Shown here: piece after piece, positions 5,984 to 33,475 of the stretch | How positions within the stretch are numbered: position 1 is the stretch's first letter | Layout of the letters: each line of letters begins with the position of its first letter | Assembly (NCBI GenBank): GCA_035516965.1 | Contig: DATIZR010000093.1 | Location: forward strand, 43,255-107,254 | Direction: 5' to 3' | Length of the DNA stretch: 64,000 bases | DNA from: Nitrospirota bacterium | GTDB taxonomy: Bacteria; Nitrospirota; UBA9217 | Translations under genes and position numbers: made by a program | Notes under the pieces: generated by a model | What the model was told of the DNA's origin: nothing | Databases searched by the model: none | What the model saw: only the letters and a program-made list of their open reading frames with translations

Positions 5984-6679
5984 CCACAGCTGATAGCCTC
6001 CCTACGTCGTCACTCATACTGAACATGATACTAATATCGCAGACAGGAGAAACCTTCTGCGTTTTCACTTTTTGTTCACCGTGAAAATCACGTCATGAAA
6101 CCTTCTCATACCCTTTGACATCACCATTATCTATGCCCCTGCCTTCCCTCTATACGAGCGGCTTTATCGTCATAAATAAAAATACAGATCGAACTAATAT
6201 TTTATAACTACTTTTATCACCTGTAGGTTAAAACTTATGCCGCTCATCATATAATATTATGCAACAATATGCTGTCAATTTTTTCTATTAAGGCGCTTGA
6301 CAGATTCAAAGGAAGGGATTATCCTAACCAAAACTCAAACCAATTATTATTGGATTGGTTGGCGTAATCACGCTCCCGCTCTCTCAGCCGGCAAGAAGGA
6401 ACCTGGACCCGGATCCCATGAACTGAATTCATTAACAGGCCTCGAAAGGAGGCGAGTAGACTGAGTGCGAGGTTACTGAGGCTACTACTTATAGATTATA
6501 AATTATTATAGAAGAACCATGGCGTTCTTCTTTCAGGAGATGTGTACTGAACTTACCGGCTAACAATTAACCCGTAGTCCGGAGCAGGCTGAAGCAGGTG
6601 AAATCAACGAGCGGACGTGAGACGTAACGTACTGACTGAATATTTCTGACGGGCTGGATAACTCAAAAGGAGAATAATC

Positions 6680-7732
6680 ATGGAGCACGCGGGAACGTAC
6701 CGGGGGGAAGAAGTCAGAAGTGGCAGCGCGTTTGTCGAAGAAAGAGCAAAGAGATACGCAGAACTTCTTGGCGCAAAAACTGTGCAATATGTCGATCAGC
6801 TTAGAGACTTTGAGGTCAAATGTTCTCGGCCGGGCGCGGATGAGGAAATACTGTTCGAAGAACTTTCCACGCTGAACGACTCGATGCTCCAAGCCTGCGC
6901 ACAATTTGAACAGGACGTGGACGACACGTTCGCCATTCGGTCTGCTCAGGTCGATTTCCGGGAAAAAACAAATCCAATTCTGTCCCAAAGCTATGGTATC
7001 AACCGGGCCAGGATATGGCCGCAAGGTCATCAGGGAGATTATAACATACTGGAAATGGCGTACAAGAACTCACCGATGTCCGACGGCATGGGATATTATC
7101 TGGACAAGTACATGATGTCCACGGAAATTACAGTCGGCGTGAGAGAACGGATCGTAAAACTGCGGGAACTGCTGAGAAAAGAGCTCATAAACAGGCGCGA
7201 GACGAAGGTCCTCGACGTGGCTTGCGGTTCCTGCCGCGAGGTTTTCGAATTAGCCCCTGAGATCAAAGCTTCTGGCGCCAAGTTCACCTGTGTTGATCTG
7301 GATGCCGATGCTCTGAATTTCGCTCTCGATCGATTCGAGCATGCGGGCCTCTCGGAAGATCACGTGGAATTACGAAAATACAATGCGCTCAGGATATTCG
7401 ACTACGAGACGGCGGTTACTGAATTCGGGATGCAGGATATTATCTACAGTGTAGGCTATTTTGATTATCTCCCCGACGATTTCCTCGTGAAATTGTTGAG
7501 ATCCTTGTATAAGATGCTCACGCCTGGCGGAAAACTGATCGCGGCCTTTAAAGAAGTCAATCGTTACCGTCCGCAGTTTTTCCATTGGATGGTCAACTGG
7601 GATGGCTTCCTGCAGCGCACCGAGGATGATTTCGAAAGATTGCTGCGTCTTGCCAATATCCCCGAAAGCGCGATATCAATATCCCGGGTTGCGTCAGGCG
7701 TAATAATCTTCTATACCGTCACCAAGGAGTGA
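6680..7732 (+). CDS. class I SAM-dependent methyltransferase with about 180-aa N-terminal extension of unknown function
   Basis: Motif I VLDVACGSCREVFEL, motif post-I VDLDADAL, TPGGKLIAAF. Strong RBS aaaggagaataatcATG. Lower GC than flanks. Confidence 0.75.
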   Translation: MEHAGTYRGEEVRSGSAFVEERAKRYAELLGAKTVQYVDQLRDFEVKCSRPGADEEILFEELSTLNDSMLQACAQFEQDVDDTFAIRSAQVDFREKTNPILSQSYGINRARIWPQGHQGDYNILEMAYKNSPMSDGMGYYLDKYMMSTEITVGVRERIVKLRELLRKELINRRETKVLDVACGSCREVFELAPEIKASGAKFTCVDLDADALNFALDRFEHAGLSEDHVELRKYNALRIFDYETAVTEFGMQDIIYSVGYFDYLPDDFLVKLLRSLYKMLTPGGKLIAAFKEVNRYRPQFFHWMVNWDGFLQRTEDDFERLLRLANIPESAISISRVASGVIIFYTVTKE

Positions 7733-7936
7733 TGCACTCACGGCAGAGATGCCGGATGTCGTCGTACGCAGAAAGAAACTCCTCCCTTGAGTGAGTAAGT
7801 ATTGGCTTGCCCATCCGCACTGAAGCAAGGTTTTGACATTGTAAAGACGCGGGAAACATGGTATAAATGACAGGCTAGGCCAAACCATCCACTCTTTCGG
7901 GAGAAAAGCCTGAAGAAAAATTCGCTTCTCAATAAG

Positions 7937-8662
7937 GTGGCGCTTGTAACGGGTGGGACAAGGGGCATCGGCCGCGCCATCGTTCTTGCTGTGTGCGGCG
8001 AAGGTGCAGATTGCGCATTTACGTACAGCAAAAATCGTGCAACGGCAGAGTCTCTTGCTGAAGAAGTTCGCCAAATTGGCAGAAAAGCTCTGTCCTTTCA
8101 ACTTGATGTGCGGGACTTTGACGGCGCTAAAACGCTGATCGAAGAGATAAAGAAGGAATTCGGAAGGCTCGACATCCTCGTGAACAACGCGGGGATAACA
8201 AAGGACAAGTCCCTCATGATGATGAACAAGGAGGACTGGTCCGACGTAATAGACACCAATCTTACCGGAGTTTTCAACACTACCCGCGCGTGCATCATTA
8301 CCTTTCTTAAGCAAAAAAACGGAAACATCGTGAACATGTCATCGGTAAGCGGCATCCACCCTCTCCCCGGCCAAGTCAATTACGCCGCCGCAAAGGCAGG
8401 TGTGATCGGCTTTACCAAATCTCTGGCAAAAGAGGTGGCGCCCTACAACATCAGGGTCAATGCCGTTGCCCCCGGTTTCATTGAAACCGAGATGACGGCG
8501 GAGCTTGGCGATAAATCCTGGAAAAAATTCGTGAACATGATCCCGCTCCACAGATTCGGGACCTCCGATGAAGTGGCGAAGGCCGTACTCTTTTTACTCA
8601 GTGACGAATCGCAGTACATCACCGGGCAAGTACTGCAACTCGATGGGGGATTGGGGATTTAA
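7937..8662 (+). CDS. fabG: 3-oxoacyl-ACP reductase (SDR family, FabG-like), GTG start
   Basis: TGGTRGIGRAI Rossmann motif, NNAGI, catalytic S...YAAAKAG (YxxxK), PGFIETEMT. Confidence 0.85.
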   Translation: MALVTGGTRGIGRAIVLAVCGEGADCAFTYSKNRATAESLAEEVRQIGRKALSFQLDVRDFDGAKTLIEEIKKEFGRLDILVNNAGITKDKSLMMMNKEDWSDVIDTNLTGVFNTTRACIITFLKQKNGNIVNMSSVSGIHPLPGQVNYAAAKAGVIGFTKSLAKEVAPYNIRVNAVAPGFIETEMTAELGDKSWKKFVNMIPLHRFGTSDEVAKAVLFLLSDESQYITGQVLQLDGGLGI

Positions 8663-8671
8663 AATCCGGAA

Positions 8672-9907
8672 ATGAGCGAAAGAATAGTAATAACCGGCAT
8701 TGGTGTTCTCTCGCCTATTGCAATCGGCAAAGAAGCATACTGGGAAGGACTCCACCAGGGCAAAACTGGATTTCGACCAGTGACCCTCTTTGACACAACA
8801 CCCTTTAGTGTCCGCATTGCAGGCGAGATCACTGATTTTGATCCTCTCCCCTTTCTTGGGAAAAAAGGTTTGCGGGACCTGGACAGAAGCACAAGGCTGA
8901 TCAGCTCTGCAGCCAAACTCGCCATTGATGACAGCGGGATCGAGATCACTGAAGCTAATACGAATTCCATGGGGGTATCAATCGGGACGACGTTCGGCAG
9001 TCTCCACAGCATCTCGCAGTTCGACCGTTCCGGCCTCATAGAAGGGCCGCGGTTCGTCAATCCATCTCACTTTCCGAACACCGTCATAAATTCTCCTGCC
9101 AGCCAGGTGTCCATCAGGTTTAAGATTAAAGGGTTCAATACGACCATATCAACGGGCTTCTGCGCAAGCCTCGACGCTGTCTCCTATGCCGCGGACTTCA
9201 TAAAGTTAAACAGGGCCAACATTGTCCTTGCAGGTGGGGTCGAAGAATTGTGCGAGGAGACCTTTATGGGATTCCATACCCTCGGTTACCTCTCAGGAGC
9301 AGACGGCTCGGAACCCCGCTGCTGTCCCTTCGATGCGCGGAGAAACGGAATAATCCTCTCTGAAGGTGCGGCCGTTTTGGTTCTTGAAAATGAGGAGCAT
9401 GCGTTAAACAGAGGAGCTAAACTTCTCGCGAGTGTTCTGGGATATGCCAATGCCTTTGATCCCTCGGCAGACAGCAACTTCAAACACGCAGGTACAGGTC
9501 TGAAGAATGCCGTAAATCTTGCCTTAAACGACGCATCTCTTAAGGCTGATGACATCGACTATATCTGCTCCTGCTCCAACTCGACACAAGGACTCGACCG
9601 GATGGAAACGAAGGTCATCAAAGAAGTCTTCGGGCAACGTGCCTTCAACATACCCGTCAGCTCAATAAAGTCCATGGTGGGGGAATCGTATTCAGCATCC
9701 GGAGCGCTTTCACTTTCTGCGGCAATAGGCGCTCTCCGGAACGGATTCATTCCCCCCACGGTAAACTATCATGAAAAGGATCTTGCGTGCGATCTCGATT
9801 ACGTGCCCGGAATTGCGCGGGAGAAGCAGACGCGGAATGTGCTCGTAACCTCGGCGGACTCATACGGTCAAAACTCAGCAGTTATCATTGGCAGTTATAC
9901 CAGGTGA
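8672..9907 (+). CDS. beta-ketoacyl-ACP synthase-like protein (KAS II fold) lacking both catalytic histidines - KS partner/chain-length-factor-like subunit
   Basis: Thiolase/KS fold with Cys retained (STGFCASLDAV). The HGTGT motif is replaced by CSCSNSTQGLD and the KSxxGH motif by KSMVGESYSASG. Confidence 0.7.
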   Translation: MSERIVITGIGVLSPIAIGKEAYWEGLHQGKTGFRPVTLFDTTPFSVRIAGEITDFDPLPFLGKKGLRDLDRSTRLISSAAKLAIDDSGIEITEANTNSMGVSIGTTFGSLHSISQFDRSGLIEGPRFVNPSHFPNTVINSPASQVSIRFKIKGFNTTISTGFCASLDAVSYAADFIKLNRANIVLAGGVEELCEETFMGFHTLGYLSGADGSEPRCCPFDARRNGIILSEGAAVLVLENEEHALNRGAKLLASVLGYANAFDPSADSNFKHAGTGLKNAVNLALNDASLKADDIDYICSCSNSTQGLDRMETKVIKEVFGQRAFNIPVSSIKSMVGESYSASGALSLSAAIGALRNGFIPPTVNYHEKDLACDLDYVPGIAREKQTRNVLVTSADSYGQNSAVIIGSYTR

Positions 9908-9910
9908 TCG

Positions 9911-10351
9911 ATGCAACTTAACTTCGAAGAGATAAAGAAGCTCATTCCCCAGCGCTTTCCTTTTATCATGGTTGATAAGGTCCTTGAGATAGAGCCGGGG
10001 AAGCACGTAATAGCGGTCAAAAATATTTCTGGCAATGACATGGTTTTCATCGGCCATTTCCCCGAAAAGGCCATCATGCCCGGTGCTCTCATACTCGAGG
10101 CAATGGCGCAGACCGCCATTATCCTCTTTGCATCAAACAGAACAAGCGAAAATGGGGACAGAGGACCATTGTATTACTTCGGGTCGGTCAAAGCGAGATT
10201 TCTCCACCCCGCCGTTCCCGGTGATCAATTAATGATTAAAGTGGTCAATGTCAAGTCTTTACCGACCGGCGCCTACGTGTCCGGTGAAGCCTTTGTTGGT
10301 GATAGAAAAATAACTGAAGCGGATCTTGTATTCAGCACTCACAATGAATAA
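9911..10351 (+). CDS. fabZ: 3-hydroxyacyl-ACP dehydratase FabZ
   Basis: IPQRFPFIMVDKVLEIEPGK...FIGHFPEKAIMPGALILEAMAQ hot-dog fold signature. Confidence 0.85.
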   Translation: MQLNFEEIKKLIPQRFPFIMVDKVLEIEPGKHVIAVKNISGNDMVFIGHFPEKAIMPGALILEAMAQTAIILFASNRTSENGDRGPLYYFGSVKARFLHPAVPGDQLMIKVVNVKSLPTGAYVSGEAFVGDRKITEADLVFSTHNE

Positions 10352-11558
10352 AAGAGTTGTCATAACGGGACTGGGGGTTATTTCCTCACTTGGTATTGGT
10401 TGGGAGAAATTCTGGGACAGTCTCCTGAAAGGAAAATCTGGCATAAGCCCGGTTTCGTCAATTGATACGGCGAACCATTTTACCCATAATGGTGGCGAGG
10501 TTAGAAATTTTAAACCCGAGAATTTTATCCCCAACAATCAAATTCCTTTGCTCAGCAGAGCATCACAATTCGGCCTTGCAGCGGCAAAGCTTGCGTTGAG
10601 GGATTCTCGTCTATCCGGTGAGGACATTTCTCGTTCCAAAGCAGGCACATGCATTGGAATAACGTCAGGATCAATCCAGGCTATAGAACATATAGATGAG
10701 AAATTGATTGTAAAAGAGATCGTAAGTGCTGATCTAATGTATCAGCTTCCTGTCCACACGACGCCGGCAATTGTAGCAAAAGAATTAGGTTTTAACGGCC
10801 CGAATCTTCTTTTTTCTACGGCATGCGCTGCAGGGAATTATGCTATCGGTTATGGGTACGATTTGATTCGTTTTAACAGGGCGGATGTTGTTACCGCAGG
10901 AGGGGCAGATCCTTTTTCAAGGATATCATTTACAGGCTTTAATCAATTTTCAGCTGTTGCACCTGAAAAATGCCAGCCCTTTGATAAGAACAGAAAAGGA
11001 ATGATGGTAGCCGAGGGTGCAGGAATTCTTGTTCTTGAGTCTCTTGAGAGTGCCATTAAAAGAAAGGCGAATATCTATGCTGAAATTTTAGGGTATGGTC
11101 TCAGTTGTGATGCTTATCATATGACGACTTCCTCGATTGAGGGCATAGCAGCATGTATGAATAAGGCGCTATCTAGTACAGGCATCGCGATAGAAGCGGT
11201 GGATTATATCAGTGCACATGGCACGGGGACTCCCACCAATGATAAGAATGAGTGCGCTGCCATTAGGGAGGTCTTCGGGTCACGTTATAGACAAATACCT
11301 ACCAGCTCAATAAAGTCTATGCTCGGCCACACCATGGGCGCTGCCTCTGCGTTAGAAGCTCTCGCCTGCGCTTTGGCTGTAAAAAACGACATTCTTCCAC
11401 CGACGACAAATTTCGAAACTCCTGATCCGGAGTGTGATATTGACTGCGTGCCTAATCAAGCAAAGCGACACAGGGTTAATATAGCTCTGAATAACTCATA
11501 TGCCTTTGGAGGAAATAATGCATCATTGGTATTGAAGAAATATGCTGGCACTGACTAA
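10344..11558 (+). CDS. beta-ketoacyl-ACP synthase II-like (catalytically complete KS)
   Basis: Cys-His-His triad present (STACAAGNYA, SAHGTGTPTNDKNE, KSMLGHTMGAAS). ORF track gives a TTG at 10326. ATG at 10344 overlaps the fabZ stop and is preferred. Confidence 0.8.
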   Translation: MNKRVVITGLGVISSLGIGWEKFWDSLLKGKSGISPVSSIDTANHFTHNGGEVRNFKPENFIPNNQIPLLSRASQFGLAAAKLALRDSRLSGEDISRSKAGTCIGITSGSIQAIEHIDEKLIVKEIVSADLMYQLPVHTTPAIVAKELGFNGPNLLFSTACAAGNYAIGYGYDLIRFNRADVVTAGGADPFSRISFTGFNQFSAVAPEKCQPFDKNRKGMMVAEGAGILVLESLESAIKRKANIYAEILGYGLSCDAYHMTTSSIEGIAACMNKALSSTGIAIEAVDYISAHGTGTPTNDKNECAAIREVFGSRYRQIPTSSIKSMLGHTMGAASALEALACALAVKNDILPPTTNFETPDPECDIDCVPNQAKRHRVNIALNNSYAFGGNNASLVLKKYAGTD

Positions 11559-11757
11559 GCATGGCAGAGTAAACAGATGATGTCGCTTTTTGCAGCGAAG
11601 CATATCACTTAGACAAGATACAAACATTAAACATCTTAAGGGAGGACTCCGCCACTGCGTCGAGGATCAACCAGGCAAGATCCTTAGCCGGCAACCACTC
11701 CTGCAGAGTGGGCGGCAGCAGGGATTTGTGCGCAACAGGCTCAAGGAGGAAGGGAAA

Positions 11758-12021
11758 TTGAATACTAATGTTGAGAAGGAAATCATATCGATCATCTCAG
11801 ATGTGTCAGGATATGATGCAGAAGAAATTGCGCCTGAGAGTAATTTTTTTAAGGATCTAGAGGTAGATTCTATTAAAGCTATCGAGATCACCGTTGCCAT
11901 TGAAAAAAAATTTAAAATATCCGTGAGAGACGAGGACGTTCCAAAGTTAACAACTGTAAGGCAGGCAGTAGAACTGGTAGAAAATTTATTAGCACGCAGG
12001 GTGAATAATGTCAAAGTTTGA
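11758..12021 (+). CDS. acyl carrier protein
   Basis: DLEVDSIKAIE phosphopantetheine-attachment motif. About 87 aa from TTG at 11758, preceded by AAGGAGGA RBS. The longer ORF from 11590 is judged an upstream extension. Confidence 0.75.
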   Translation: MNTNVEKEIISIISDVSGYDAEEIAPESNFFKDLEVDSIKAIEITVAIEKKFKISVRDEDVPKLTTVRQAVELVENLLARRVNNVKV

Positions 12022-13426
12022 AAATGATACATACGATGTTGTCATAATAGGTGCGGGCATAGGCGGCCTTGTGTGTGGATGCTATCTTGCAAAAGCAGGC
12101 ATGAAGGTTTTGATTGTAGAGCAACACAATAAACCCGGTGGTTACTGCACTTCGTTCAAAAGGCGAGGTTATACTTTTGACGCAGCAGCCCATTCATTTG
12201 GAAGTTACCGAAAAGACGGTAACATGAGGCTTGTTCTAAAGGCTCTGAATTTAGATGAACGAATATGTATAAGGAGAACCACTCCTTCTGATATAGTTAT
12301 AACACCAGAACACAAAATTACTTTTTGGGCAGACATAGACAAAACCATTCGAGAGCTTCAGGATTCTTTTCCTAAAGAGGCCAATAATATCAAAAATTTT
12401 ATTCAGTATCTTACAACTTCCAGGCCAATTGATTTTGCTGCGCTACGAAAACAAAGCTATAAAGACTTTTTAGATCGCTATTTTTATGATTATCGCATCA
12501 AAACAATACTCTCCCTTCCTATACTTGGCAACGGAGGTCTGCCACCCTCATTGATTTCCGCCTTCACAGGTGCAAAGATATTCACTGAATTTATCCTTGA
12601 TGGCGGTTATTACCCTGAGGGAGGTATGCAAGCATTACCGGATATAATTGTTGATAGATTTAAAGAACTTGGCGGACATATAAAATTATCCTGTTTAGTT
12701 AAAAAAATTAGTGTAATTAATAATAGAGTTGAAGGTGCCGTTTTAGAAAAAATCGGCCTGGTACGGACGCGATATTTAGTCTCAAACTGTGATGCGAGGC
12801 AAACTTATTATGATCTATTAGGTAAACACCATGTCAAAAAGGAAATTTTCGACACCATCGATAGCCTGACTCCATCCCTCTCCACTTTTATTTTATACGT
12901 AGCTGTAGATAAACCTTTTAAATCGTTGCCTAAACCCGGAACGAATGTGTGGTTTCTGCCGTATTATGATTTAGAAAAAGCTTACTCATATGCCAAAAAA
13001 GGCAACATAGATAAAGTAGAGGGATTTATGGTACGGTTTTCACCTGATAAGAAAACCATTTTAGCATTTGTAAATGCACCCTTCAAAAATAAGGTGTACT
13101 GGGACAAGAATAAAAGTAAACTGCAAGAATCATTTATTCAAAGAATAGAAAAATATGTAATTCCAGATTTATCAAAGCATATTGTATATAAGGAAACAGC
13201 GACTCCACACACATTATATCGATACACTTTAAACTATCAAGGAGCTGCCTATGGTTGGGCGAGTACGCCTTCACAATTATTTACCCCCGAATTAAGACAA
13301 TCTACTTCAATAAGAGGTTTATACTTGACAGGACACTGGACTACCCAAACGCAGGGAATCCCCGGAGTTGCTTATTTGGGATTGGATACGGCAAAATTTA
13401 TACTTAGAAAAGAAATACTAAAGTAG
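12008..13426 (+). CDS. FAD/NAD(P)-dependent oxidoreductase, phytoene-desaturase (CrtI-like) family
   Basis: N-terminal dinucleotide-binding motif DVVIIGAGIGGLVCGCYLAKAGMKVLIVEQ...PGGYC. 472 aa, typical of CrtI/CrtD-like desaturases. Very AT-rich coding sequence. Confidence 0.75.
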   Translation: MSKFENDTYDVVIIGAGIGGLVCGCYLAKAGMKVLIVEQHNKPGGYCTSFKRRGYTFDAAAHSFGSYRKDGNMRLVLKALNLDERICIRRTTPSDIVITPEHKITFWADIDKTIRELQDSFPKEANNIKNFIQYLTTSRPIDFAALRKQSYKDFLDRYFYDYRIKTILSLPILGNGGLPPSLISAFTGAKIFTEFILDGGYYPEGGMQALPDIIVDRFKELGGHIKLSCLVKKISVINNRVEGAVLEKIGLVRTRYLVSNCDARQTYYDLLGKHHVKKEIFDTIDSLTPSLSTFILYVAVDKPFKSLPKPGTNVWFLPYYDLEKAYSYAKKGNIDKVEGFMVRFSPDKKTILAFVNAPFKNKVYWDKNKSKLQESFIQRIEKYVIPDLSKHIVYKETATPHTLYRYTLNYQGAAYGWASTPSQLFTPELRQSTSIRGLYLTGHWTTQTQGIPGVAYLGLDTAKFILRKEILK

Positions 13427-13448
13427 GTAAGTTTGGTAAAATTGCGCT

Positions 13449-15608
13449 ATGGAAATTGAAAAAAAGCCGTATATAACAGAACAAACTGAGAAGATAACTC
13501 AATCATGGGTTGGCATAAGCTCTATTCTTGGGACTGTTCTCTTCATGTCATTAGGGATTTTAGATTATTTTGTTACACCTGAAAACTTCAAAAGATTTTT
13601 GAGTTATAGGATTGCGGTCTCTTTATTTTTAATACTCCTCTTTTTTCTAAATAAGCTTAAACGGAAATTATATTACCAATATTTTATTGTTATCCTGGGA
13701 ATTATTTCTTCAGCAATTGCAATTGAAATAATGATACTCCACTTCGGGGGGCACACATCCACTTATTATGCTGGGATGACTTTGCTCATTGTATGTGTTT
13801 TGGGTGTTCTCCCAATTAATTTACCGGTGTCTTTTTTTGTAGCAATTACTTTGTATTTAATTTATCTATTCCCCATACTGATACTCGACAAGATAGTCTA
13901 TTGGGGTACTTTCATCACTAACAATGTTTTTACTCTTTCAATAATTTTTGTCGCTTTCACTTGGAGAATTTTGAGTCAAAAAAGCTTGAATAGAGAACTA
14001 GCTCTTAAATATGACCTTGCTCAGCAGAAAAAACAGCTTGAAATATATTCCCTCCAGCTAAAAGGCATGGTCGAGGAGAGGACGAAAGAGCTGCGGACTT
14101 CTGAGCAGTGGCACCGATCGCTTGTCGACAATGCGACGGACGGCATCATCGTTCAGGATGGAAGCGGCATTATCCTGAATGTGAACGACAGGGCCTGCGA
14201 GATGCACGGATTTCCCAAGGAGGTGTTGGTCGGGACCCATATCAGGCTGCTCGAGGACGGCTCCAGACAGGATGAGATAGCCGAGAGGATGCGTCGTCTG
14301 TTCGCCGGCGAATCGCTCGTCTTTGAGACCGTGCACCACAAGAAGGACGGAACACCCCTCTATCTCGAGATCAGCTCGAAGGCGATCACGATCGGCGAAG
14401 AGATGTTCATTCAGTCATTTTACCGTGATATCACGGAGAAGAAAAGGCTGCAGGAGCACCTCTTCCAGTCCCAGAAGATGGATTCCATCGGGGTCCTTGC
14501 CGGCGGCATCGCCCATGACTTCAACAACATCCTGACAGCCATCATCGGCCATCTGGAGATCATCCGGCGCACCGCACTCGATGAAAAGGCGCTCCGGAGC
14601 CTGAATGTCATCGAGGATGCGGCGCGCAGGGCGGGGAGGATGATCTCCAAGCTGCTCGGGTTCGCCCGGAAGAGCAATTTTGAGATCGTGCCGCTGAACA
14701 TGAATGACGTCATCTTCGACACGGTAAAACTGCTCGAACGGGTGATCGACAAGAAGATCAATGTGACCGTGGAGCTGGATAACCAGCTGCCGCTCGTCCA
14801 GGGCGACGTCAACCAGATCGAGCAGATCATCATGAACCTCGTCGTCAACGCCAGGGACGCCATGCCCGGCGGCGGACGCATTGTCATCAAGACGACGAGC
14901 CGTGAAATCGTCAGGGGCATGCCGGACGTGCCGGCCTACATTCTGCCCGGGCACTATGTCATCATGACCGTAACTGATACGGGCACGGGCATTCCGAAAG
15001 ACATCGTGAGCAAGATCTTCGAGCCCTTTTTCACGACCAAGGAGCGCGGAAAGGGCACCGGACTCGGCCTCTCGATGGTCTACGGCGTCATCAAGGAGCA
15101 CCGGGGGTACATCATGGTGCAGAGCGAGGAGAACAGAGGAACGGTCTTCACGATCTATCTTCCGGCCTCCCAGGCGGCCGTCGTAAAGAAAGAGATAAAG
15201 CAGCTGGCTTCGGTCAGCGGGAGCGAGACCGTACTGGTCGTCGATGATGAGCCGGACATCCTGCACGCGATCCAGGATACGCTGTCCAGTCATGGGTACA
15301 AAGTGTTTGCGGTAAGCGATCCGGTCTCGGCCATCAACATCTTCAAGAAGCTGTCCTCGGAGATCGACCTCGTCATTACGGACATCGTAATGCCGCGGTT
15401 GAACGGCAAGGAGCTGGTCGGCCAGATCAAGGCAATGAATGCGGATGTCAAAGTGCTCGCCATCTCGGGGTACACGAAATATGTGGCGCCCAAGGACGAG
15501 ATCGGAGAGATCAACGGATTTCTGCAGAAGCCCTTCGAGTCGTACTACCTCCTGACGGTCGTGCGGCGCATACTCGATGCCCATCCTCACGAGCTCATAC
15601 CCAACTAA
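13449..15608 (+). CDS. hybrid sensor histidine kinase: N-terminal multi-pass (about 7 TM) membrane domain, PAS, HisKA, HATPase_c, C-terminal REC
   Basis: About 7 hydrophobic helices in the first 180 aa. PAS ([13 protein letters not shown]), H-box ([13 protein letters not shown]), N/G boxes ([24 protein letters not shown]), REC ([11 protein letters not shown]...ITDIVMP). Confidence 0.85.
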
Positions 15609-15619
15609 TCCCCCCGGCG

Positions 15620-15883
15620 TCACACCTTGCCGCTCACTTTATACAGAAACGCCAGAATTTCCGCGACGGCCTTATACAGCTCTACCGGGATCTCTTCATA
15701 GAGGTCGAGGGTAGAGAGGATCTCTATCAGATGACGGTCGTCGTGCACCGGGACGCCGTGCTTTCGGGCGAGCGCAATGATCTTTTCCGCCACCATCCCC
15801 TTTCCCGTGGCAACGACCGCCGGAGCATGGTCCTTCCCTTGCCGGTACTTGAGCGCCACCGCTTTTTGCTGGCTATCCTTCAC
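15620..15883 (-). CDS. FlhB C-terminal domain-like small protein (EscU/YscU/FlhB family fragment)
   Basis: 87 aa. VVATGKGMVAEKIIALARKHGVPVHDDRHLIEIL resembles the FlhB C-terminal cleaved domain, a common stand-alone FlhB-C-like protein. Confidence 0.65.
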   Translation of the reverse strand: MKDSQQKAVALKYRQGKDHAPAVVATGKGMVAEKIIALARKHGVPVHDDRHLIEILSTLDLYEEIPVELYKAVAEILAFLYKVSGKV

Positions 15884-16089
15884 TACGCCCCTCTTCGTTT
15901 AATCATCTAGCCGGCTGCGAACATGAGCTCGGCCTTCCCGGCAGTTTAATCGATAATCCAGCGCCCGGATCATGTTCCATCCGGGAAACCCCTATCCGCC
16001 GATGATGCGGACCGAAACTGCTTTCACCTGTGATGGCAAAGCCCCTGTGCGCCCTTTTCCAGCATTCCTGGTTCCTGCCGGGACTGAAC

Positions 16090-17178
16090 TCATGCCCGGA
16101 TACTCAGCCCGGCCGGACCATGGGCGGCAAAATCGATCCGAGCCTCGTGCTGTATGGTCAAACCGCCCAGTCTCAAACCGGCCGATTCGAGCTGCTTCTC
16201 GAGCAAAGAGGAGCTTTCCTGCAGCAGCCCCGAGAAGGTCCTGTTCTCGGCTGCGCAGGAGACATGGACGCTCCCGGCCTGAAGCAGAAGGCGGACCTGT
16301 ACCTTTCCCGCACGCTCCAGGTCCAGGTTGATGCAGCAGGAGAAGGTCCGCTCGCCCGGACTCCCACGGTCGGACTGACGGAGGATCAGCTCCCCGTCCC
16401 GGAGCTCTTTCCACACAAGCGGCAGGAAGAGCTGCAGGGAGTCGGTCAGCTTCGACTGCAGCTGGTAGTACTCTATGTTCCGGAGGATGCCGTTGACCGC
16501 TTCGAGAAGACCCTTCCGGTCGAGAGCATTGCTGGAGGGAAATTCATCGAACCCTGGCTGGAGAAGCGTTTCCTTGAAGCGAAGCAGGGCGGCCTTCAGG
16601 TCGCCGGTGATGACGTGCTTGGCCTCGATGTTTGCAGCATCAGCGTCTGCCTCCATTCCCATCGCAAGGATACGGAGCTTCGTTTCAAAGAAAACCCCGC
16701 CATCCTGGACCGCTTCTTTCAAGGCTGACGCGGTCAGTTTGTTCAGGGGAATGAGAAAACGGTCGATCATGTCGACCTCGGGCATGTTCATCCTGAGGTC
16801 TTCGGGAATCCGGGAAAGAAGCCCGGAAAGACGCAGCATCCATTCAGCGGCGGGCTGGAGATCTTGAAGGTTTTCCAGGGCGGGCAGAATCGCATTCTTG
16901 ACGTTGTCAGCGGTTTCGACCGTGTTTCCCGCCAGCCTCAGGTAAATGACGCTTTCCTGCCGCTCCACCCGAAGGGACAAGAGATCCCCCATCTGGAGCT
17001 GCACTTCGGACTGCGCGGTAAGGACACTGTCATTCACCTTGATCGAAACGCTATTGTCCGGCCCGATGCCCACCACCTCGGCCTTCACCTCTGTCCCGGG
17101 CTTGAGCGCGAAGGCATCGTTGCCGCTTACAGAAAGCGCCAGGTTTTTCCCAACTGGCGGTACAGGACTGCTCTGCAT
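16090..17178 (-). CDS. flagellar hook-length control protein FliK-like
   Basis: C-terminal Flg_hook-like region (ELRDGELILRQSD...GKVQVRLLLQAGSVHVSCAAE...LEKQLESAGLRL). Adjacent to FlhB-C-like gene. Confidence 0.55.
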   Translation of the reverse strand: MQSSPVPPVGKNLALSVSGNDAFALKPGTEVKAEVVGIGPDNSVSIKVNDSVLTAQSEVQLQMGDLLSLRVERQESVIYLRLAGNTVETADNVKNAILPALENLQDLQPAAEWMLRLSGLLSRIPEDLRMNMPEVDMIDRFLIPLNKLTASALKEAVQDGGVFFETKLRILAMGMEADADAANIEAKHVITGDLKAALLRFKETLLQPGFDEFPSSNALDRKGLLEAVNGILRNIEYYQLQSKLTDSLQLFLPLVWKELRDGELILRQSDRGSPGERTFSCCINLDLERAGKVQVRLLLQAGSVHVSCAAENRTFSGLLQESSSLLEKQLESAGLRLGGLTIQHEARIDFAAHGPAGLSIRA

Positions 17179-17847
17179 GCCGTCTCCCTGTCAAGAGCAT
17201 TTAACATATGCATTTCATTATAGCAGATATAGCAAAATGACCCTCCCGGCAGAAGCCCGGAGGCTCACAAATCAATTTGTTAATCGCTGTTGCTCTTGAT
17301 CTTTTTAATTGGTCCTCTTCATAGACAAAAGTCCCCATTTCATTTAAGTCTGTACACGGTACACCGTAGTCTCGGGAACGGGTGCCCTCTTTGCTTGAGT
17401 ACGTCCTACGCCTAATGGAAATTTCTCCCCTTTGGCCAGCGTCAGGATTCTAATCTTTTATGTCGAGAACGTATCCCAGACCGTCAATACTTTTTTACTG
17501 CTACTGTTCAATGTGGTGAACAAATTTATATTCCCTTCAAACGTCGTATTTTTGACGATTCTCAACATCCCTGCGTTGTATTTTCATCTATTAACTTATA
17601 TTGTAATTCAATCAGTTATACCATGCGTTGAAGTCTTTTCCCTCCCTTCCCTCATGGTATTAACATTGCATAATAACGCATTACGAAGCATCTTTTTCTA
17701 TTCATAGTGTTTGATTGTTGCTTTATAAGGAAGTCGCTCCTTGCACTTATGAATAGTAACGGGATCAAGGGATGCCGTCTTACTATCATAATGAATGGCC
17801 CTGTTATCGGGCAGAATTCTACCCCATGGAAGCGGAAGAGGTCTCTG

Positions 17848-18447
17848 ATGAAAAGAGAGAATGTAGTCTGGTATGAGGCTACCGTTGTTCGAGAGCGCAG
17901 GGAAAAACTGAACGGTCATAAGAGCACTGTCGTCTGGTTCACTGGCCTGCCAAGTTCTGGAAAATCCACGATCGCTCATTGCGTCGAGGAAAAATTGTTC
18001 CAGATGGGCTGCCGGACCCTTGTTCTCGACGGAGACAATGTGCGGCACGGACTCTGCTCTGACCTCGGATTTTCCGCGGAAGACAGGGCCGAGAACATCC
18101 GCCGTATCGGCGAGGTGGCTAAGCTTTTTGTCGAGGCAGGAATAATCGTGCTGACGGCGTTCATCTCTCCCTTTCAGGCGAACCGCGACCAAGTACGGCA
18201 GCTGGTCGGAGACGTCAACTTCATCGAGATCTTCTGCGACTGCCCGATCGAGGTCTGTGAGGAGCGCGATCCCAAGGGGCATTACCAAAAGGCGCGTGAT
18301 GGCGTCATTCAACACTTCACCGGGATATCCGCGCCCTATGAAGCACCGGTCAACTGTCACCTCGCGCTGAAGACCGAACAGTATTCACCGGAAAAATGCT
18401 CAGCGCAGGTGATCGAGCTGCTCATGGAACGGGGTATTCTAAGTTAA
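17848..18447 (+). CDS. cysC: adenylylsulfate (APS) kinase
   Basis: P-loop WFTGLPSSGKSTIA, LDGDNVRHGL, FISPF motifs. ATG at 17848 with GGAAGAGG RBS (ORF track extends upstream to 17707). Confidence 0.85.
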   Translation: MKRENVVWYEATVVRERREKLNGHKSTVVWFTGLPSSGKSTIAHCVEEKLFQMGCRTLVLDGDNVRHGLCSDLGFSAEDRAENIRRIGEVAKLFVEAGIIVLTAFISPFQANRDQVRQLVGDVNFIEIFCDCPIEVCEERDPKGHYQKARDGVIQHFTGISAPYEAPVNCHLALKTEQYSPEKCSAQVIELLMERGILS

Positions 18448-18623: not shown

Positions 18624-19829
18624 ATGTCCATATCATCAGTAAGTTCAACAAATACGATCGCCGATGCACTCTTCTCGGCCATGAGCGACCAGCAAACGCA
18701 GCTGACAGCGTTGGCGCAGACCGCCCTGTCCACAGGTGCTGATCGCGCCATGAACGGCGATTACGAAGGCGCGACGCGAGAGTTCAGACGTTCCATCGGC
18801 CTGGATTCTTCTCCCCAGAATGCCGTGACGGCATATCATCTTCTTGCGACGTCCTATATTCAGATGGGGCGGACTGAGGACGCGATCAAGGCATATCAGT
18901 CATCGATCCGCATGGCGCCGACTGATGACACCGCTCACCTCAATTTAGGCAATATCTATTTCAGCCAGGGGCGCTACAACGAAGCTGAAGCAGAATATCG
19001 GTCTGCAGTGAGAAACAATCCGACTTCCTCTACAAATCTGTTTTCACTCGGTCAGGTGTATCTTGCCACTGACCGTAACCAGCTGGCGGAAACAACCTTT
19101 AAACGGGTGATCCAGATGGATGGTAGTCAATATGGCGGATATTATGCGCTGGGGCAGACTTACGCCAAGGCAGGAAGGCAGGAGGATGCAATCTCCGAGT
19201 TTCAAAAGGTCATCAGCCTGAAGAAGGATTTTTATCAGGTGCATGTGGATCTTGGATACGCATATGCTGACCTTGGCCAGACGTCAAAAGCAAAAGATGA
19301 ACTGAGCATTCTGAATGATAAAGCGCCGAACCTGGCCTCTGTTCTGAGCGGATACCTCGATCAGATCGCTAAACCAAAGATCCTTGCTGCATACAACGTC
19401 AGCGGATTTGCAAACACCCTTGGTCCCGGCACGAAAGTGTCCACAATGGACAAATCCTTAACAATGCCGGGTGCATCACACGAATTCAACATGGTATTCA
19501 TGTTCACGAAAGACATGGATCTCTCGTCAATTACGAATCCTTTTAACTGGTCCATTGCCAAGGCAGCCTATGGTGCTGCCGGAGGCCCCTACAACTGGGG
19601 ATTGCCGACACCTGCGACCGATGTCAACATATCGCCGGTACCGATACGTGTCACCTATGCGCCAGATGCCCGGTCCGCCACTGTTTCCTTCCTGATCAAG
19701 CAGAATGCCAGCGCCAATGGTACGATCGATCCATCGCACATTAGGTTCAAATTCAATGGCAAAGATGTTTATGGAAACACTATGGACACATCTGCAGACG
19801 AATATAGCGGCATTTCAAAGATCGTCTGA
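18624..19829 (+). CDS. TPR-repeat protein with C-terminal domain of unknown function
   Basis: Repeated A-x-x-Y/L-x-x-G-x-x-Y TPR units (AYHLLATSYIQMGRTEDAIKAYQ, HLNLGNIYFSQGRYNEAE, LFSLGQVYLAT, YYALGQTYAKAGRQEDAI). The C-terminal 150 aa has no recognisable motif. Confidence 0.55.
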   Translation: MSISSVSSTNTIADALFSAMSDQQTQLTALAQTALSTGADRAMNGDYEGATREFRRSIGLDSSPQNAVTAYHLLATSYIQMGRTEDAIKAYQSSIRMAPTDDTAHLNLGNIYFSQGRYNEAEAEYRSAVRNNPTSSTNLFSLGQVYLATDRNQLAETTFKRVIQMDGSQYGGYYALGQTYAKAGRQEDAISEFQKVISLKKDFYQVHVDLGYAYADLGQTSKAKDELSILNDKAPNLASVLSGYLDQIAKPKILAAYNVSGFANTLGPGTKVSTMDKSLTMPGASHEFNMVFMFTKDMDLSSITNPFNWSIAKAAYGAAGGPYNWGLPTPATDVNISPVPIRVTYAPDARSATVSFLIKQNASANGTIDPSHIRFKFNGKDVYGNTMDTSADEYSGISKIV

Positions 19830-20420
19830 TGGGCGCTGCGTCTGCTATGTGTAGCATAAAAACCTACTCCTCACATCGTGATCTGCGAATCTTAGTGTCA
19901 TTGTCCTTGCAGCTTAAGCCTTTCTGACTCAAAACATCACAGTACGTCACAACACAAGTTCTCGCGCAAAGCCGCCAAGGTCACAAAAAAACGGTTTTTT
20001 GATCCAATCGTTGTTCCGGCTTGCTCAGGTCAGTTCTAGTCGTTTATCGAGTCGACATGATACTGTTTACCGTAAGCTTATTTTAGCAAATTGAGAGTGC
20101 CAATATATTGTCAGCTCTTTCCGTTTTCTAGTAACCCTACCACATTTACCTAAGGCATATACAACATATTATTCCATATTTACAATTAGTTATAATCTAG
20201 GTTCCATATAACAAGTCTATTGTTATGTGGTATTAATGTTGCATCTAAGCATGATGACAGTATTATTTTGTTCCGGTTTTTGACAGATTCACTCATCTGA
20301 AATGCCTATCAAGTAGAAGCAAGAACGATCCTGAATCCAGAGATTTTCTTGAGATACAGAATGCGGGCGACGTTGACGTTCAATAATATCAGTCAGAATA
20401 TGGAAAAGTTGATGTAAAAA

Positions 20421-21227
20421 ATGAAAGAAAAAGTGGACAAATACCCAGTACGTCGCCATGACAAGCTGGTTAATTTTATCATTTGTGGTACGCAGAAGGG
20501 CGGTACTACTGCGTTGGATGAATATCTACGAGAGCACCCCGAGATATGCATGGCCGAAAAGAAAGAGGTACACTTTTTCGATCGTGAAAATTTTTTTCGT
20601 GATATGACGCCTGACTATGCCTGGTATCACTCCTCGTTCACCCCTCGAACGACGCATAAGGTGCTCGGAGAGGCAACGCCGATATATATGTATTGGAACG
20701 GCGCACCACGGCGGATCTGGGAATATAACCCTGCAATGAAGCTGATCGTCGTATTGCGAAATCCCATCGACAGGGCCTATTCTCACTGGAACATGGAGCG
20801 TTCCAGAAATGCCGATACGTTATCATTCTGGGATGCTATCCAAAAAGAATCGGAGAGATGTCGAGAAGCATTGCCATATCAACACAGGATCTATAGCTAT
20901 GTTGATAGAGGCTTCTATTTGGGGCAGCTGCGAAGACTTTGGCTGTACTTTAAAAAAGATCATGTCTTGATCCTGAAAAACGAGTATCTGAGGAATCGGC
21001 CGTATGAGGCACTTCGGGAGGTCTGCGATTTTCTTGAGGTCGCCTGTTTTGACCGGATCGCTATCAAGAACGTTCATTCGCGGCCTTATGAATCGACCAT
21101 GAGCACAAGAGAACGACATTTCCTGCAGAATATCTATGAGCATGAGATCCTCAGTATTGAGCGGGTTCTTGGATGGGATTGCAGCGACTGGCTCACCGCG
21201 GAATGCGGTACGGGAGAGAGCACATGA
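20421..21227 (+). CDS. sulfotransferase family protein (PAPS-dependent)
   Basis: 5-prime-PSB motif IICGTQKGGTTAL and 3-prime-PB motif VVLRNPIDRAYSHW. Confidence 0.8.
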   Translation: MKEKVDKYPVRRHDKLVNFIICGTQKGGTTALDEYLREHPEICMAEKKEVHFFDRENFFRDMTPDYAWYHSSFTPRTTHKVLGEATPIYMYWNGAPRRIWEYNPAMKLIVVLRNPIDRAYSHWNMERSRNADTLSFWDAIQKESERCREALPYQHRIYSYVDRGFYLGQLRRLWLYFKKDHVLILKNEYLRNRPYEALREVCDFLEVACFDRIAIKNVHSRPYESTMSTRERHFLQNIYEHEILSIERVLGWDCSDWLTAECGTGEST

Positions 21228-22081
21228 CATCAGGTCCGGCAGCTGAACTCGTCGAAAAAATACGGGACAAACAGTGCGTCTTCACCATTACCGCCGGACG
21301 TACCGGAACAAACTATCTTCAAAAACTATTCGCTCTCTTCCCTGATACGCTCAGTGTGCATGAAGGAGCGCCGGATTTCGTTCATGTATTAAGAAGAGCG
21401 CAGCAGAACCCTGAAGTTGCCTACAGCTTCTGCCTGCAGCATAAGCTGCCGTTCATCGCCGCTATCGATCAAAAAAGATACGTCGAAACCAGCCACCTGT
21501 TCTGTAAAGGCTTCGTCGAGTCGTTCCTGAAGTGCGGCGTTGTACCGCATATTATAATACTCAGAAGACCTCCTCGGGAGATTGCAGTGAGCAATCTTGG
21601 GCTGAGCACGGTCCCGTCACGCACCGTCCATGGATTAATGTATCTGCTGTCACCGGACGATCCGAATGTATTGCCGCTGCCTCAATGGCAATACCTGAAC
21701 GATTATCAACTATGCTTTTGGTACAGCCTGGAGATCGAAAGGAGGCAAAGAAATTATGCTGATATGTTCAGGCAGCTCGGCGCACGTGTCGTCGAGACGT
21801 CACTTTCCGAACTGCTTGATTTCAGCGCCTTCGTACTCGTTGCATCACAGCTGGGTTTCGAGGCTGACATTCATGATAGAAGCTTGAATGACAATTTTCT
21901 GGAACTCTCTGCCGTGAAACACAACGAAAAACAAAAAAATCCCATAACAGCGACGCCCGAGGAGTTTACGGCTGCCGAAGAAGAGGTCTGGGAAAAGATC
22001 TATTATTACGATCCCTTGCTAAGGGATAGAATTACACAGCAATATGAAAAACCGGTGGTAGGCAAAATGGCGGTTTACTAG
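21224..22081 (+). CDS. sulfotransferase-like P-loop protein
   Basis: TAGRTGTNYL P-loop-like PAPS-binding motif. 4-nt overlap (ATGA) with the upstream sulfotransferase. ORF track start at 21173 is an upstream extension. Confidence 0.55.
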   Translation: MTSGPAAELVEKIRDKQCVFTITAGRTGTNYLQKLFALFPDTLSVHEGAPDFVHVLRRAQQNPEVAYSFCLQHKLPFIAAIDQKRYVETSHLFCKGFVESFLKCGVVPHIIILRRPPREIAVSNLGLSTVPSRTVHGLMYLLSPDDPNVLPLPQWQYLNDYQLCFWYSLEIERRQRNYADMFRQLGARVVETSLSELLDFSAFVLVASQLGFEADIHDRSLNDNFLELSAVKHNEKQKNPITATPEEFTAAEEEVWEKIYYYDPLLRDRITQQYEKPVVGKMAVY

Positions 22082-22141
22082 CGCAGTTGCACCGTCTTTT
22101 CTGGTTTATAGCCGAAATTTAAGGTCAAACAACGTGCTCGT

Positions 22142-24901: not shown

Positions 24902-24911
24902 GGCATGAGCT

Positions 24912-28538: not shown

Positions 28539-28581
28539 CCTTGGAGGAAGAAGTTCTGGCAAGGTTGATTGTTCACACACT

Positions 28582-33445: not shown

Positions 33446-33475
33446 TGATGTTGGCCTCAAGAGAGGATAGCTGAT

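Follow-up and report, generated by a model that had tools for sequence, protein, structure and literature searches.

In the agr system, a hypervariable region covers agrB, agrD and agrC and ends inside the kinase gene, whereas the core of the kinase and its downstream partner are conserved; discrete allele types exist within species (PMC12312760). In the comQXPA system, the kinase ComP joins a variable N-terminal membrane domain to a conserved cytoplasmic domain, and its pherotypes coexist at the millimetre scale (PMC4008528). CqsS is a membrane-bound sensor histidine kinase that reads a fatty-acyl-derived, lipid-like signal made by CqsA and feeds a phosphorelay (PMC3285556, PMC3310172); it has a design of six transmembrane (TM) helices (PMC4821796), and its signal/receptor specificity differs between species (PMC3285556, PMC3310172). 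Here we analysed a 64,000-nucleotide stretch of a Nitrospirota genome (the window; GenBank assembly GCA_035516965.1, contig DATIZR010000093.1, positions 43,255 to 107,254), in which a single hybrid histidine-kinase gene (13449-15608, + strand) changes abruptly in codon usage between a membrane sensor half of the MASE8 type and a core composed of PAS, kinase and receiver (REC) domains. This kinase gene is the last of a co-directional cluster whose seven upstream genes (6680-13426) encode a methyltransferase (MT), a reductase (KR), two ketosynthase-like proteins (KS1 and KS2), a dehydratase (DH), an acyl carrier protein (ACP) and a CrtI-family flavoenzyme that we call AO. Within this conserved cluster, AO and the sensor half of its neighbouring kinase form a hypervariable unit that is passed on jointly and exchanged laterally. 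The step in codon usage probably marks the right recombination boundary of a hypervariable allelic cassette, comprising AO and MASE8 and here also KS2 and ACP, in which enzyme and sensor would be matched for a lipid-like product.

Like agrBDCA, the locus pairs a hypervariable enzyme with a hypervariable sensor half of a kinase, places the boundary of variation inside the kinase gene, keeps a conserved core and falls into discrete types. Unlike agrBDCA, it contains no AgrB, AgrD or peptide, and genes resembling those of type II fatty-acid synthesis (FAS-II) and type II polyketide synthases (PKS) are linked to it instead, together with the CrtI-family flavoenzyme; its kinase is a PAS-containing HisKA hybrid with a receiver rather than an HPK10 kinase such as AgrC, and its host is a diderm Nitrospirota anaerobe. 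With comQXPA it shares a modifying enzyme and an N-terminal multi-TM kinase domain that are polymorphic together, and a cytoplasmic kinase domain that is conserved. ComQ, however, is an isoprenyl transferase acting on the ribosomal peptide ComX, whereas the enzyme here is a putative CrtI-like desaturase or isomerase and no peptide gene is evident; allele types are also far more numerous (38 at 60% identity among 99 proteins) and are spread over a class rather than one species group. Two marks of a pherotype locus were found, namely a hypervariable block of signal maker plus sensor whose boundary lies inside the kinase gene, which we see at the level of genes, and discrete coexisting types that are incongruent with the core phylogeny. 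A third, a ribosomal-peptide signal, was not found: no gene matched the AgrB or ComQ families, all seven upstream genes being of FAS/PKS, methyltransferase or CrtI type, and no small peptide gene was called in the 22-nt gap between AO and the kinase. The likeness to CqsS is one of receptor design only, six TM helices with HisKA-HATPase-REC. Unlike CqsA/CqsS and the RpfC pathway for diffusible signal factor (DSF), the cluster has no CqsA-type pyridoxal-phosphate enzyme, aminotransferase-class domain or RpfF-type crotonase by Pfam, and unlike CqsS its sensor is of MASE8 type, is followed by PAS and gave no significant fold match to a solved receptor. Hypervariable allelism is, to our knowledge, not a described feature of CqsS.

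The kinase gene is one intact open reading frame (ORF) encoding 719 aa. The GC fraction of third codon positions (GC3) is 0.23-0.43 in the leading ~190 codons and, starting at about codon 200, 0.70-0.97. A two-segment maximum-likelihood scan placed the best change point after codon 200, at nt 14049, with a GC3 of 0.32 to its left and 0.81 to its right and a log-likelihood ratio of 76.1; all ten top-ranked change points fall within codons 198-207, and in 2,000 codon permutations the ratio averaged 2.5 and reached at most 10.1. An initial annotation, made from the sequence alone, had described an abrupt codon-usage junction near nt 14050 and had placed the right-hand boundary of an AT-rich island inside the ORF. 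Both statements proved accurate, although its figures for total GC ran high, the actual values being ~32% rather than 35-40% in the first 600 nt and ~57% rather than ~65% after the junction. The profile is a sharp step and no gradual consequence of amino-acid composition, an explanation that we ruled out from fourfold degenerate sites (GC 0.33 left, 0.86 right) and from codon flips within single amino acids, with the share of GC-ending codons rising across the step from 0.07 to 0.81 for Ile, from 0.00 to 0.86 for Thr and from 0.12 to 0.90 for Ala. Nor is the step a peculiarity of membrane domains, because the soluble CrtI-like enzyme encoded immediately upstream (12008-13426) has a similar GC3 of 0.31. 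Among the ~40 related loci compared here (labels of the form L0xx denote the contigs that carry relatives), L004 and L005 raised the idea of a trough intrinsic to the gene, owing to TM-domain codon usage or a need for silencing; this was rejected as sufficient, because fourfold sites and the soluble AO are low in GC too and because the step is reversed in L018 and absent or small at other loci.

The whole protein is identical on contigs from three independent samples (ENA ERZ27256514, ENA ERZ27256617 and JGI 3300032783), which are 99.99% identical to the window across the junction, and its C-terminal 540 residues have a 100% identical record in an NCBI protein from a Nitrospirota metagenome-assembled genome (MAG). 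This deposited protein (P0006, 540 aa, 'ATP-binding protein', MAG TPA Nitrospirota) begins at a TTG at codon 180 (window 13986) and starts '[11 protein letters not shown]...'; the whole AT-rich membrane sensor domain is dropped from the public annotation, presumably as a result of the codon-usage step. Two of the three contigs carrying the gene (L002 and L003) end within the AT-rich AO gene, at window 12739 and 13101; heterogeneity among strains, or poor coverage of AT-rich DNA, could be the cause in these two samples.

Pfam resolves the kinase into a membrane domain (residues 1 to ~180), a long helix, and PAS (222-333), HisKA (350-409), HATPase (452-574) and REC (595-705) domains, the same order of PAS, kinase and receiver after a membrane domain that had been read from the sequence initially. 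HisKA (45.7 bits), HATPase_c (89.1 bits) and Response_reg (69.1 bits) all exceed their cutoffs, as expected of a hybrid sensor histidine kinase; the H-box 'GIAHDFNN' and the receiver motif '[10 protein letters not shown]' are seen in the translation, and residues 351-360 are invariant across the family. Residues 1-200 (13449..14048, + strand) constitute the hypervariable, AT-rich sensor of MASE8 type with six predicted helices and a GC3 of 0.32, and residues 201-719 (14049..15608, + strand) the conserved transmitter core PAS-HisKA-HATPase_c-REC, host-like in composition with a GC3 of 0.81. Straddling their junction, residues 184-225 (13998..14123, + strand) form a breakpoint zone, where TM6 extends into the cytoplasm as the conserved signalling helix '[31 protein letters not shown]'.

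The sensor family is MASE8 (Pfam PF20968), with the window allele as a divergent member, because among 23 diverse alleles of this orthologous domain 19 match the profile at E<=0.1 (best E 1.5e-8); the window allele itself scores 15.8-17.7 bits (cutoff 26.2; E 0.004-0.017) over profile positions 2-117 of 154. An AlphaFold model of the sensor built on the 23 alleles (pLDDT 89, pTM 0.76) predicts six TM helices, at residues 5-42, 44-68, 74-99, 107-120, 125-146 and 152-224, in place of the seven proposed initially, and so agrees with the MASE8 plan of an N-terminal integral-membrane multi-helix domain fused to cytoplasmic signalling domains. In the model, TM6 (from ~152) runs unbroken into the PAS-proximal cytoplasmic signalling helix, up to residue 224. 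Sequence searches of solved structures gave no relatives of the sensor, and Foldseek returned nothing significant, its top matches being to adenylyl cyclases and to the diguanylate cyclase ImcA, in each case to a six-TM anchor (TMq 0.5-0.58, E >= 0.04), led by the ImcA membrane anchor (E 0.04, TMq 0.54). Most sensor TM segments vary between alleles. The positions that are invariant across alleles include D39, P44, G101-H102 and P142, and the motifs that are kept ([10 protein letters not shown], FGGHxSxYYAG and PILxxD) lie near predicted helix ends and short inter-helix loops; a positive-inside topology argument would put these conserved motifs on the periplasmic side. No description of a MASE8 ligand was found in the searchable literature.

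The two halves of this protein have different histories across the family. Out of more than 1000 relatives, we compared the 98 full-length members of the family that best match the kinase core, which together with the window make 99 proteins and 4851 pairs. Identity to the window spans 32-51% in the N-terminal part and 63-79% in the core, and the two are uncorrelated (r = -0.24, n = 98). All-against-all comparison revealed pairs whose cores are 96-99% identical and whose MASE8 domains are 31-38% identical, as well as the converse, pairs with 91-97% identity in MASE8 and 69-79% in the core. Clustering at 60% identity divided the same 99 proteins into 38 MASE8 types as against one core cluster; a single core clade (>=90% identity) holds 6 MASE8 types, and one MASE8 type is found in 5 core clusters. 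In the 50 pairs with a core identity of at least 90% and a sensor identity of at most 45%, the change points in identity map to window residues 184-225 (median 196), a zone that coincides with the GC3 step of the window. At the nucleotide level, identity of the window to its closest cores climbs from 0.45-0.6 to 0.75-0.8 between nt 14019 and 14049.

Linkage analysis of pairwise identities across ~37 loci separated two groups. MT, KR, KS1, DH and the kinase core co-vary with one another (rho 0.48-0.82), and AO co-varies with MASE8 (rho 0.72); between the groups, values range from -0.40 to +0.15 where the upstream genes are concerned, and in comparison with the kinase core AO gives -0.01 and MASE8 +0.35. 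A single ORF is thus divided between the two linkage groups. Composition follows the same pairing, with GC3 of AO and MASE8 strongly correlated across loci (r = 0.93), but dependence on the host is loose, MASE8 GC3 rising on host core GC3 with a slope of only 0.45. In 28 of 38 loci the core has a GC3 more than 0.1 above that of MASE8; in nine the two lie within 0.1 of each other, and in one, L018, the core is the lower.

Exchange is visible within a single population and between lineages. Loci L036-L039 share one chromosomal context (FtsK-BacA-...-PEBP-cluster-DUF3108-...), and two of the four come from the same sample (ERZ25039554), in which two MASE8 types were found, on DNA that is otherwise 94-100% identical. 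Their nucleotide identity is 0.90-1.00 over most of the flanks, KR-KS1-DH and the kinase core, drops to 0.33-0.70 in ACP-AO-MASE8 and ranges from 0.52 to 0.98 by pair in KS2, then recovers in the kinase gene, first to 0.82-0.92 just after nt 640 and farther on to 0.93-0.99. GC content is 0.28-0.50 (mostly 0.29-0.45) inside the variable block as against 0.45-0.60 outside it. Conversely, L041 and L040, which lie in unrelated contexts, are 0.82-0.91 identical across KS2-ACP-AO-MASE8 and less so outside this module, at 0.74-0.83 in MT-KS1 and 0.61-0.70 over the larger part of the kinase core (starting ~1.2 kb into the gene). At L018 (JACUUX010000038.1, kinase from 9504), the step is reversed: flank GC is 0.38 and core GC3 0.37, with a GC3 of 0.55 in MASE8 and 0.42 in AO, which suggests that this module was imported from a higher-GC lineage. 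Together, these comparisons show that the locus is mosaic, where its breakpoints fall, that enzyme and sensor are co-inherited, and that the locus is polymorphic within a population. In-frame swapping of homologous sensor alleles, with the adjacent enzyme gene, is recurrent and family-wide rather than a one-off event.

KS2 contains a second variable patch at residues 51-150 (window 10476-10775), which is 40-56% identical to the relatives closest in core genes, as against 70-86% for the rest of the protein, and which is also mosaic at the population level (44-99% identity between strains). We considered this patch as part of the co-varying specificity unit and rejected it, given rho values of 0.07 with AO, -0.07 with MASE8 and 0.45-0.55 with the core genes. 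At the block edges we found only chance-level repeats of 14-17 nt, and the window's cluster contains no integrase or transposase. Site-specific insertion was rejected on these grounds, an IS110 element being present in L043 only, and the lack of meaningful repeats around the block fits exchange by homologous recombination instead.

Host GC3 in the window is about 0.77-0.89, and the kinase core (0.81) matches it at fourfold sites as well (GC 0.86 against 0.81-0.84 in flanking host genes), in line with the original view that the PAS-kinase core is resident. Across the cluster, GC3 descends from 0.53-0.62 in MT-DH through 0.39-0.42 in KS2-ACP to 0.31-0.32 in AO-MASE8, the intermediate MT-DH genes resembling those of the mid-GC loci L007 and L008 in both sequence and composition. 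Identity of the window to these two loci is 80-88% for the MT-to-DH genes, 73-75% for the kinase core, 54-55% for AO and 41-43% for MASE8; to the low-GC contig L006, whose GC3 is 0.30-0.41 throughout, it is 72% for AO, 69% for MASE8 and 64-66% for KS1 and DH. The kinase core is 73-80% identical to its closest relatives, and a search of 5.8 billion proteins gave no relative of the window's sensor allele closer than 69%. When the best hits of the two halves were compared, they came from different lineages of one class, all of them Nitrospirota/Thermodesulfovibrionia; the expected difference in origin was found, with the N-terminal 200 aa closest to L006 and the core closest to L007/L008, and it lies below the level of class. 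KS2 is an outlier in its own clade, being 66-70% identical to siblings that share 83-86% with one another, and has its best match (76%) in the low-GC locus L017.

The simplest reading of the window is a nested mosaic. A segment reaching from KS2 to about codon 200 of the kinase would stem from a Thermodesulfovibrionia lineage of low GC, whose nearest sampled representative is L006, and would have taken the place of the resident allele; its right crossover would lie in the signalling helix, just after TM6 exits the membrane. The step at nt 14049 would be sharp because the low-GC-derived allele has not ameliorated in a host with a GC3 of ~0.8. Everything from MT to MASE8 may have come in one piece from a mid-GC relative already bearing such an allele; L008 and L013 have GC3 profiles like that of the window.

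The architecture is widespread in one group of bacteria. A search with the core (residues 201-719) returned more than 1000 proteins at E<=1e-100; among the 120 matches listed, most are 715-729 aa long and about a quarter are shorter, partly as partial records. The order MASE8-PAS-HisKA-HATPase-REC is common to these >1000 relatives, typically in proteins of 717-724 aa, and all located ones are in Nitrospirota/Thermodesulfovibrionia. A scan of one genome per species yielded 29 loci, all in Nitrospirota-type MAGs (most labelled Nitrospirota, Nitrospirae or Thermodesulfovibrionia), and the cassette was wholly or partly recognisable upstream of the kinase in 20 of them; across the related loci examined, the cassette or a recognisable part precedes the MASE8-PAS-HK-REC gene in ~30 of ~40. 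Homologues of the N-terminal 205 aa likewise sit in loci with the cassette upstream of a MASE8-PAS-HisKA-HATPase-REC gene. Since the cluster occupies several different chromosomal contexts, comparison with an 'empty site' is impossible. Cluster content also varies (L021-L024, L031, L033 and L034; L011 and L014-L016), from MT directly beside the kinase without KS, DH or AO, to the kinase alone, to clusters in which only the CrtI-like gene is missing. Among AO-less loci, the GC3 step is absent or small in L011, L014, L021, L024, L031 and L034 and is still present in L015, L016, L022 and L023. L004 and L037-L042 carry a PEBP-family gene (phosphatidylethanolamine-binding protein, Pfam PF01161) directly upstream of MT, which is not in this place in the window and which may encode an accessory lipid-binding component. 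In L043, an IS110-family transposase (1159-2178) lies just before KR, where MT lies elsewhere, and no MT gene was called there.

In Thermodesulfovibrionia, MT-KR-KS1-DH-KS2-ACP-CrtI-like-MASE8-PAS-HK-REC is conserved as a unit, within which AO and the sensor come in many deeply diverged allele types. We propose that homologous exchange through the conserved sequence on either side moves these types among strains and among lineages. A right crossover placed in the conserved signalling helix would leave the PAS-kinase-receiver core, and usually the upstream genes too, with the history and composition of the host. As for function, the CrtI-like enzyme would set a structural feature, such as the desaturation or isomerisation pattern, of an ACP-built lipid or polyene; the MASE8 bundle would sense this hydrophobic product within the membrane, TM6 would relay the signal along its continuous helix to PAS-HisKA, and the receiver domain would then feed a phosphorelay. 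If one protein shapes the product and the other senses it, the two must change together, giving strain-specific signal-receptor pairs that would all signal through one unchanging phosphorelay core, and such matching would explain both the joint travel of enzyme and sensor and the position of the swap point exactly at the sensor end. By analogy with agrBDC and comQXP, enzyme and sensor may thus form a matched specificity module for a lipid-like product, and their co-inheritance agrees with the earlier idea of a sensor that responds to what the adjacent cassette makes. From these patterns we infer the ligand, the direction of selection and a role in signalling.

Several observations weigh against this matched, imported cassette. 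Not every variable part of the pathway tracks the sensor, since the KS2 patch shows a rho of about 0 with both AO and MASE8. The AO-sensor pairing could be mere physical linkage, the genes being adjacent and 22 nt apart, and some loci have the kinase without AO or without any biosynthetic genes. The window's own MASE8 match is under the Pfam threshold. A 'recent' date for the import is read solely from composition, because the donor is unsampled and the nearest relative is 69-72% identical at the amino-acid level. Finally, four very different alleles in one host population all have a low GC3 (0.30-0.39), and this similarity fits a local equilibrium, such as one with reduced recombination or weaker selection in a block that does not recombine, at least as well as it fits independent imports.

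We weighed four other accounts of the step against allelic exchange. Because the source is a MAG and two of the three contigs with the gene end inside AO (12739 and 13101), reads from low-GC and high-GC relatives might have been joined at the conserved linker during assembly. The chance of such a chimera is negligible, as three independent assemblies and the NCBI core record agree, with 99.99% identity across the junction; moreover, dozens of loci are built alike, some of them on contigs of 261-1322 kb that belong to other MAG sets, and GC3 values of 0.32 and 0.81 leave little shared k-mer content for mis-joining. The initial annotation had instead pictured a foreign 7-TM sensor newly fused in frame to a resident PAS-kinase at the edge of a horizontally acquired lipid island. 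A compositional boundary inside the ORF, a host-like core and a GC3 of 0.31-0.62 throughout the MT-to-MASE8 cassette, below the 0.77-0.82 of flanking host genes, would all suit that picture. In its strong form, however, it is refuted, and we consider a new fusion very improbable: the same domain order and length are usual in >1000 relatives, the cassette or part of it lies upstream in most loci examined, and the sensor is homologous across all alleles, with D39, P44, G101-H102 and P142 invariant. Given that homology and those invariant motifs, the event was the replacement of an allele within an existing architecture.

A third account dispenses with recent import and holds that AT-richness arises in place, in ancient balanced alleles that do not recombine, so that selection or GC-biased repair works less well on them and AT-biased mutation lowers GC3, ending abruptly where recombination resumes in the linker. 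It draws on the low GC3 of the four alleles in one host population (0.30-0.39, with cores at 0.64-0.66), on the prevalence of loci with core GC3 above MASE8 by more than 0.1 (28 of 38), on the mostly small gap in low-GC hosts (core 0.26-0.37), which is 0.02-0.08 in five of six and 0.18 in L029, on the gradual fall of GC through KS2 and ACP on the left side, and on the positive relation between GC content and recombination rate in 82% of bacterial species (PMC11879095). Yet L020 (core GC3 0.65) and L017 (0.36) share an allele at 71% aa identity with a sensor GC3 of ~0.28 in both, the window and L006 providing a second such case; L018 has the reverse step (MASE8 0.55, core 0.37), L021, L024 and L031 have none and L034 and L035 a small one; and the module of L040/L041 is more similar than both of its flanks. 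As a full explanation, an origin in place is therefore unlikely; because cross-lineage transfer clearly occurs, it is a contributor rather than an alternative, and alleles too diverged to recombine with one another may in this way gain further AT-richness. The last account accepts hypervariability and assigns it to another cause, either feedback on flux or membrane state through a docking enzyme-sensor pair, or antagonists that drive diversification, for instance inhibitory lipid analogues, toxins or phages exploiting the membrane protein. That AO and MASE8 are inherited together is equally expected of interacting proteins, CrtI-type enzymes are membrane-peripheral, and conserved motifs at helix ends and loops with variable TM segments are a pattern that does not separate ligands from partners. 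Against it stand the discrete, deeply diverged types in strains of one sample, shuffled across lineages, which are the classical signature of a recognition or specificity locus; and where antagonists are concerned, AO is cytoplasmic, so external antagonists do not explain its co-variation, and an inner-membrane protein with very short loops would be a poor phage receptor in a diderm. We regard this account as a minority possibility that deserves to be kept in view, and exchange of a matched enzyme-sensor cassette as the probable one.

The seven upstream genes, all on the + strand, give an outline of the pathway. MT (6680..7732), the first of them, is predicted to be a methyltransferase dependent on S-adenosylmethionine (Pfam Methyltransf_12/25; GC3 0.58) and is 80-82% identical in amino acids to its counterparts in L007/L008; its pairwise identities co-vary with those of KR, KS1, DH and the kinase core (rho 0.61-0.81), which places it in the core group together with these genes. 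KR (7937..8662; GC3 0.62) is a FabG-type 3-oxoacyl-ACP reductase (TIGR01830, 314.9 bits, cutoff 297.75), 87-88% identical to L007/L008. KS1 (8672..9907; GC3 0.56) has the N and C domains of Pfam ketoacyl-synt and retains Cys164, without both catalytic His residues: 'CSCSNSTQG' and 'VGESYSASG' stand in place of HGTGT and GHxxGAAG, marking it as a ketosynthase-like partner resembling a chain-length factor (CLF). DH (9911..10351; GC3 0.53) is a FabZ/ApeI-like 3-hydroxyacyl-ACP dehydratase (NCBIfam NF000582, 136.5 bits, cutoff 113), with precomputed Pfam matches to ApeI-like and ApeP-like families. KS2 (10326..11558) is the first gene with lowered GC3 (0.39) and a catalytic FabF-like ketosynthase with a full Cys167-His-His triad; an assignment of KS2 as the chain-length-factor-like subunit was overturned by these motifs, KS1 being the one that lacks the catalytic His pair. 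ACP (11590..12021; GC3 0.42) has its Pfam PP-binding domain at residues 64-129 of the listed ORF, and its true start is probably later than listed, orthologues being 81-88 aa long. AO (12008..13426), a hypervariable and AT-rich phytoene-desaturase-like FAD oxidoreductase that ends 22 nt before the kinase gene, scores 74 bits with Amino_oxidase (above cutoff), 63.7 bits with NAD_binding_8 and 151 bits with NCBIfam crtI_fam TIGR02734 (below the cutoff of 238); CrtI in the PDB (4dgk, E 5e-27) is its best solved relative. It thus appears, from these profiles, to be a family-level relative of CrtI flavoenzymes, 50-58% identical to nearly all orthologues and 72% to that of L006.

As judged from these annotations, the cluster would be a small type-II-PKS/aryl-polyene-like chain-building set with a methyltransferase and a tailoring enzyme of desaturase/isomerase type. 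Like aryl-polyene (APE) clusters, it has a KS with a CLF-like partner, an ApeI/ApeP-like dehydratase, a FabG-like reductase, an ACP and a methyltransferase. Unlike them, the seven genes in 6680-13426 include no aryl-starter activation, thioesterase or ligase, LolA-like export, MMPL-type protein or acyl- or glycosyltransferase, while a CrtI-family enzyme and a dedicated hybrid kinase come on top.

Genes for an HDOD protein and a REC-GGDEF protein precede the cluster in the window. Between the latter and MT lies an AT-rich gap of ~700 nt (5984-6679, GC about 0.41-0.45) with no + strand ORF of at least 80 aa, presumed to be a promoter or regulatory region and the left edge of the low-GC segment; an Rfam scan of 5800-16200 gave no match at E<=0.1. 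The kinase gene is followed on the - strand (15620-17178) by a short gene resembling the FlhB C terminus (Bac_export_2, 87 aa) and a FliK-like hook-length gene. Such neighbours were found by tblastn at L035 only and, similar ones, by Pfam at L041-L043, that is, at several relatives but not all, which hints at an ancestral position beside flagellar genes and a possible link of kinase output to motility. Further downstream, + strand genes in 18624-36346 have a GC3 of 0.53-0.59 in a host of ~0.8 and encode tetratricopeptide-repeat (TPR) proteins, sulfotransferases and GT2 glycosyltransferase-TPR proteins of 919-1208 aa, with an APS kinase gene upstream of the run at about 17707-18447; this resembles a second mid-GC island, probably for a sulfated glycan.

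Collectively, our results describe a class-wide, pherotype-like polymorphism that links a CrtI-like enzyme to a MASE8 sensor and that is previously undescribed; no account of this enzyme-sensor system was found in the searchable literature. Its evolutionary mechanism is well supported, and its signalling function is reasoned from that mechanism. One practical consequence is that intragenic composition steps can mislead gene callers, as with the deposited protein that begins without its sensor, and may break metagenome assemblies. The locus also offers a natural allele series of matched enzyme-sensor pairs, with a mapped swap point (residues 184-225) for chimeric receptors, and a route to assigning the MASE8 ligand. 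As a tentative proposal, which we hold to be possible but would not call likely, Thermodesulfovibrionia may possess a strain-recognition system based on a lipid or polyene, with a hydrophobic signal built by a small type-II-PKS-like pathway and given an allele-specific structure by the CrtI-like enzyme, a matched MASE8 sensor reading it in the membrane and dozens of enzyme-sensor 'lipotypes' kept under frequency-dependent selection and traded by recombination at the signalling helix. If true, it would be the first non-peptide pherotype system and the first in an uncultivated anaerobic diderm phylum. Hypervariable cassettes of signal maker and sensor are the genetic signature of private communication channels, or pherotypes, and as far as we know they have so far been characterised for ribosomal peptides in Firmicutes. 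Here that signature surrounds a lipid/polyene pathway and spans a whole class of mostly uncultured Nitrospirota, which suggests that kin- or strain-specific lipid signalling may exist in sulfate-reducing or subsurface bacteria of environmental importance.

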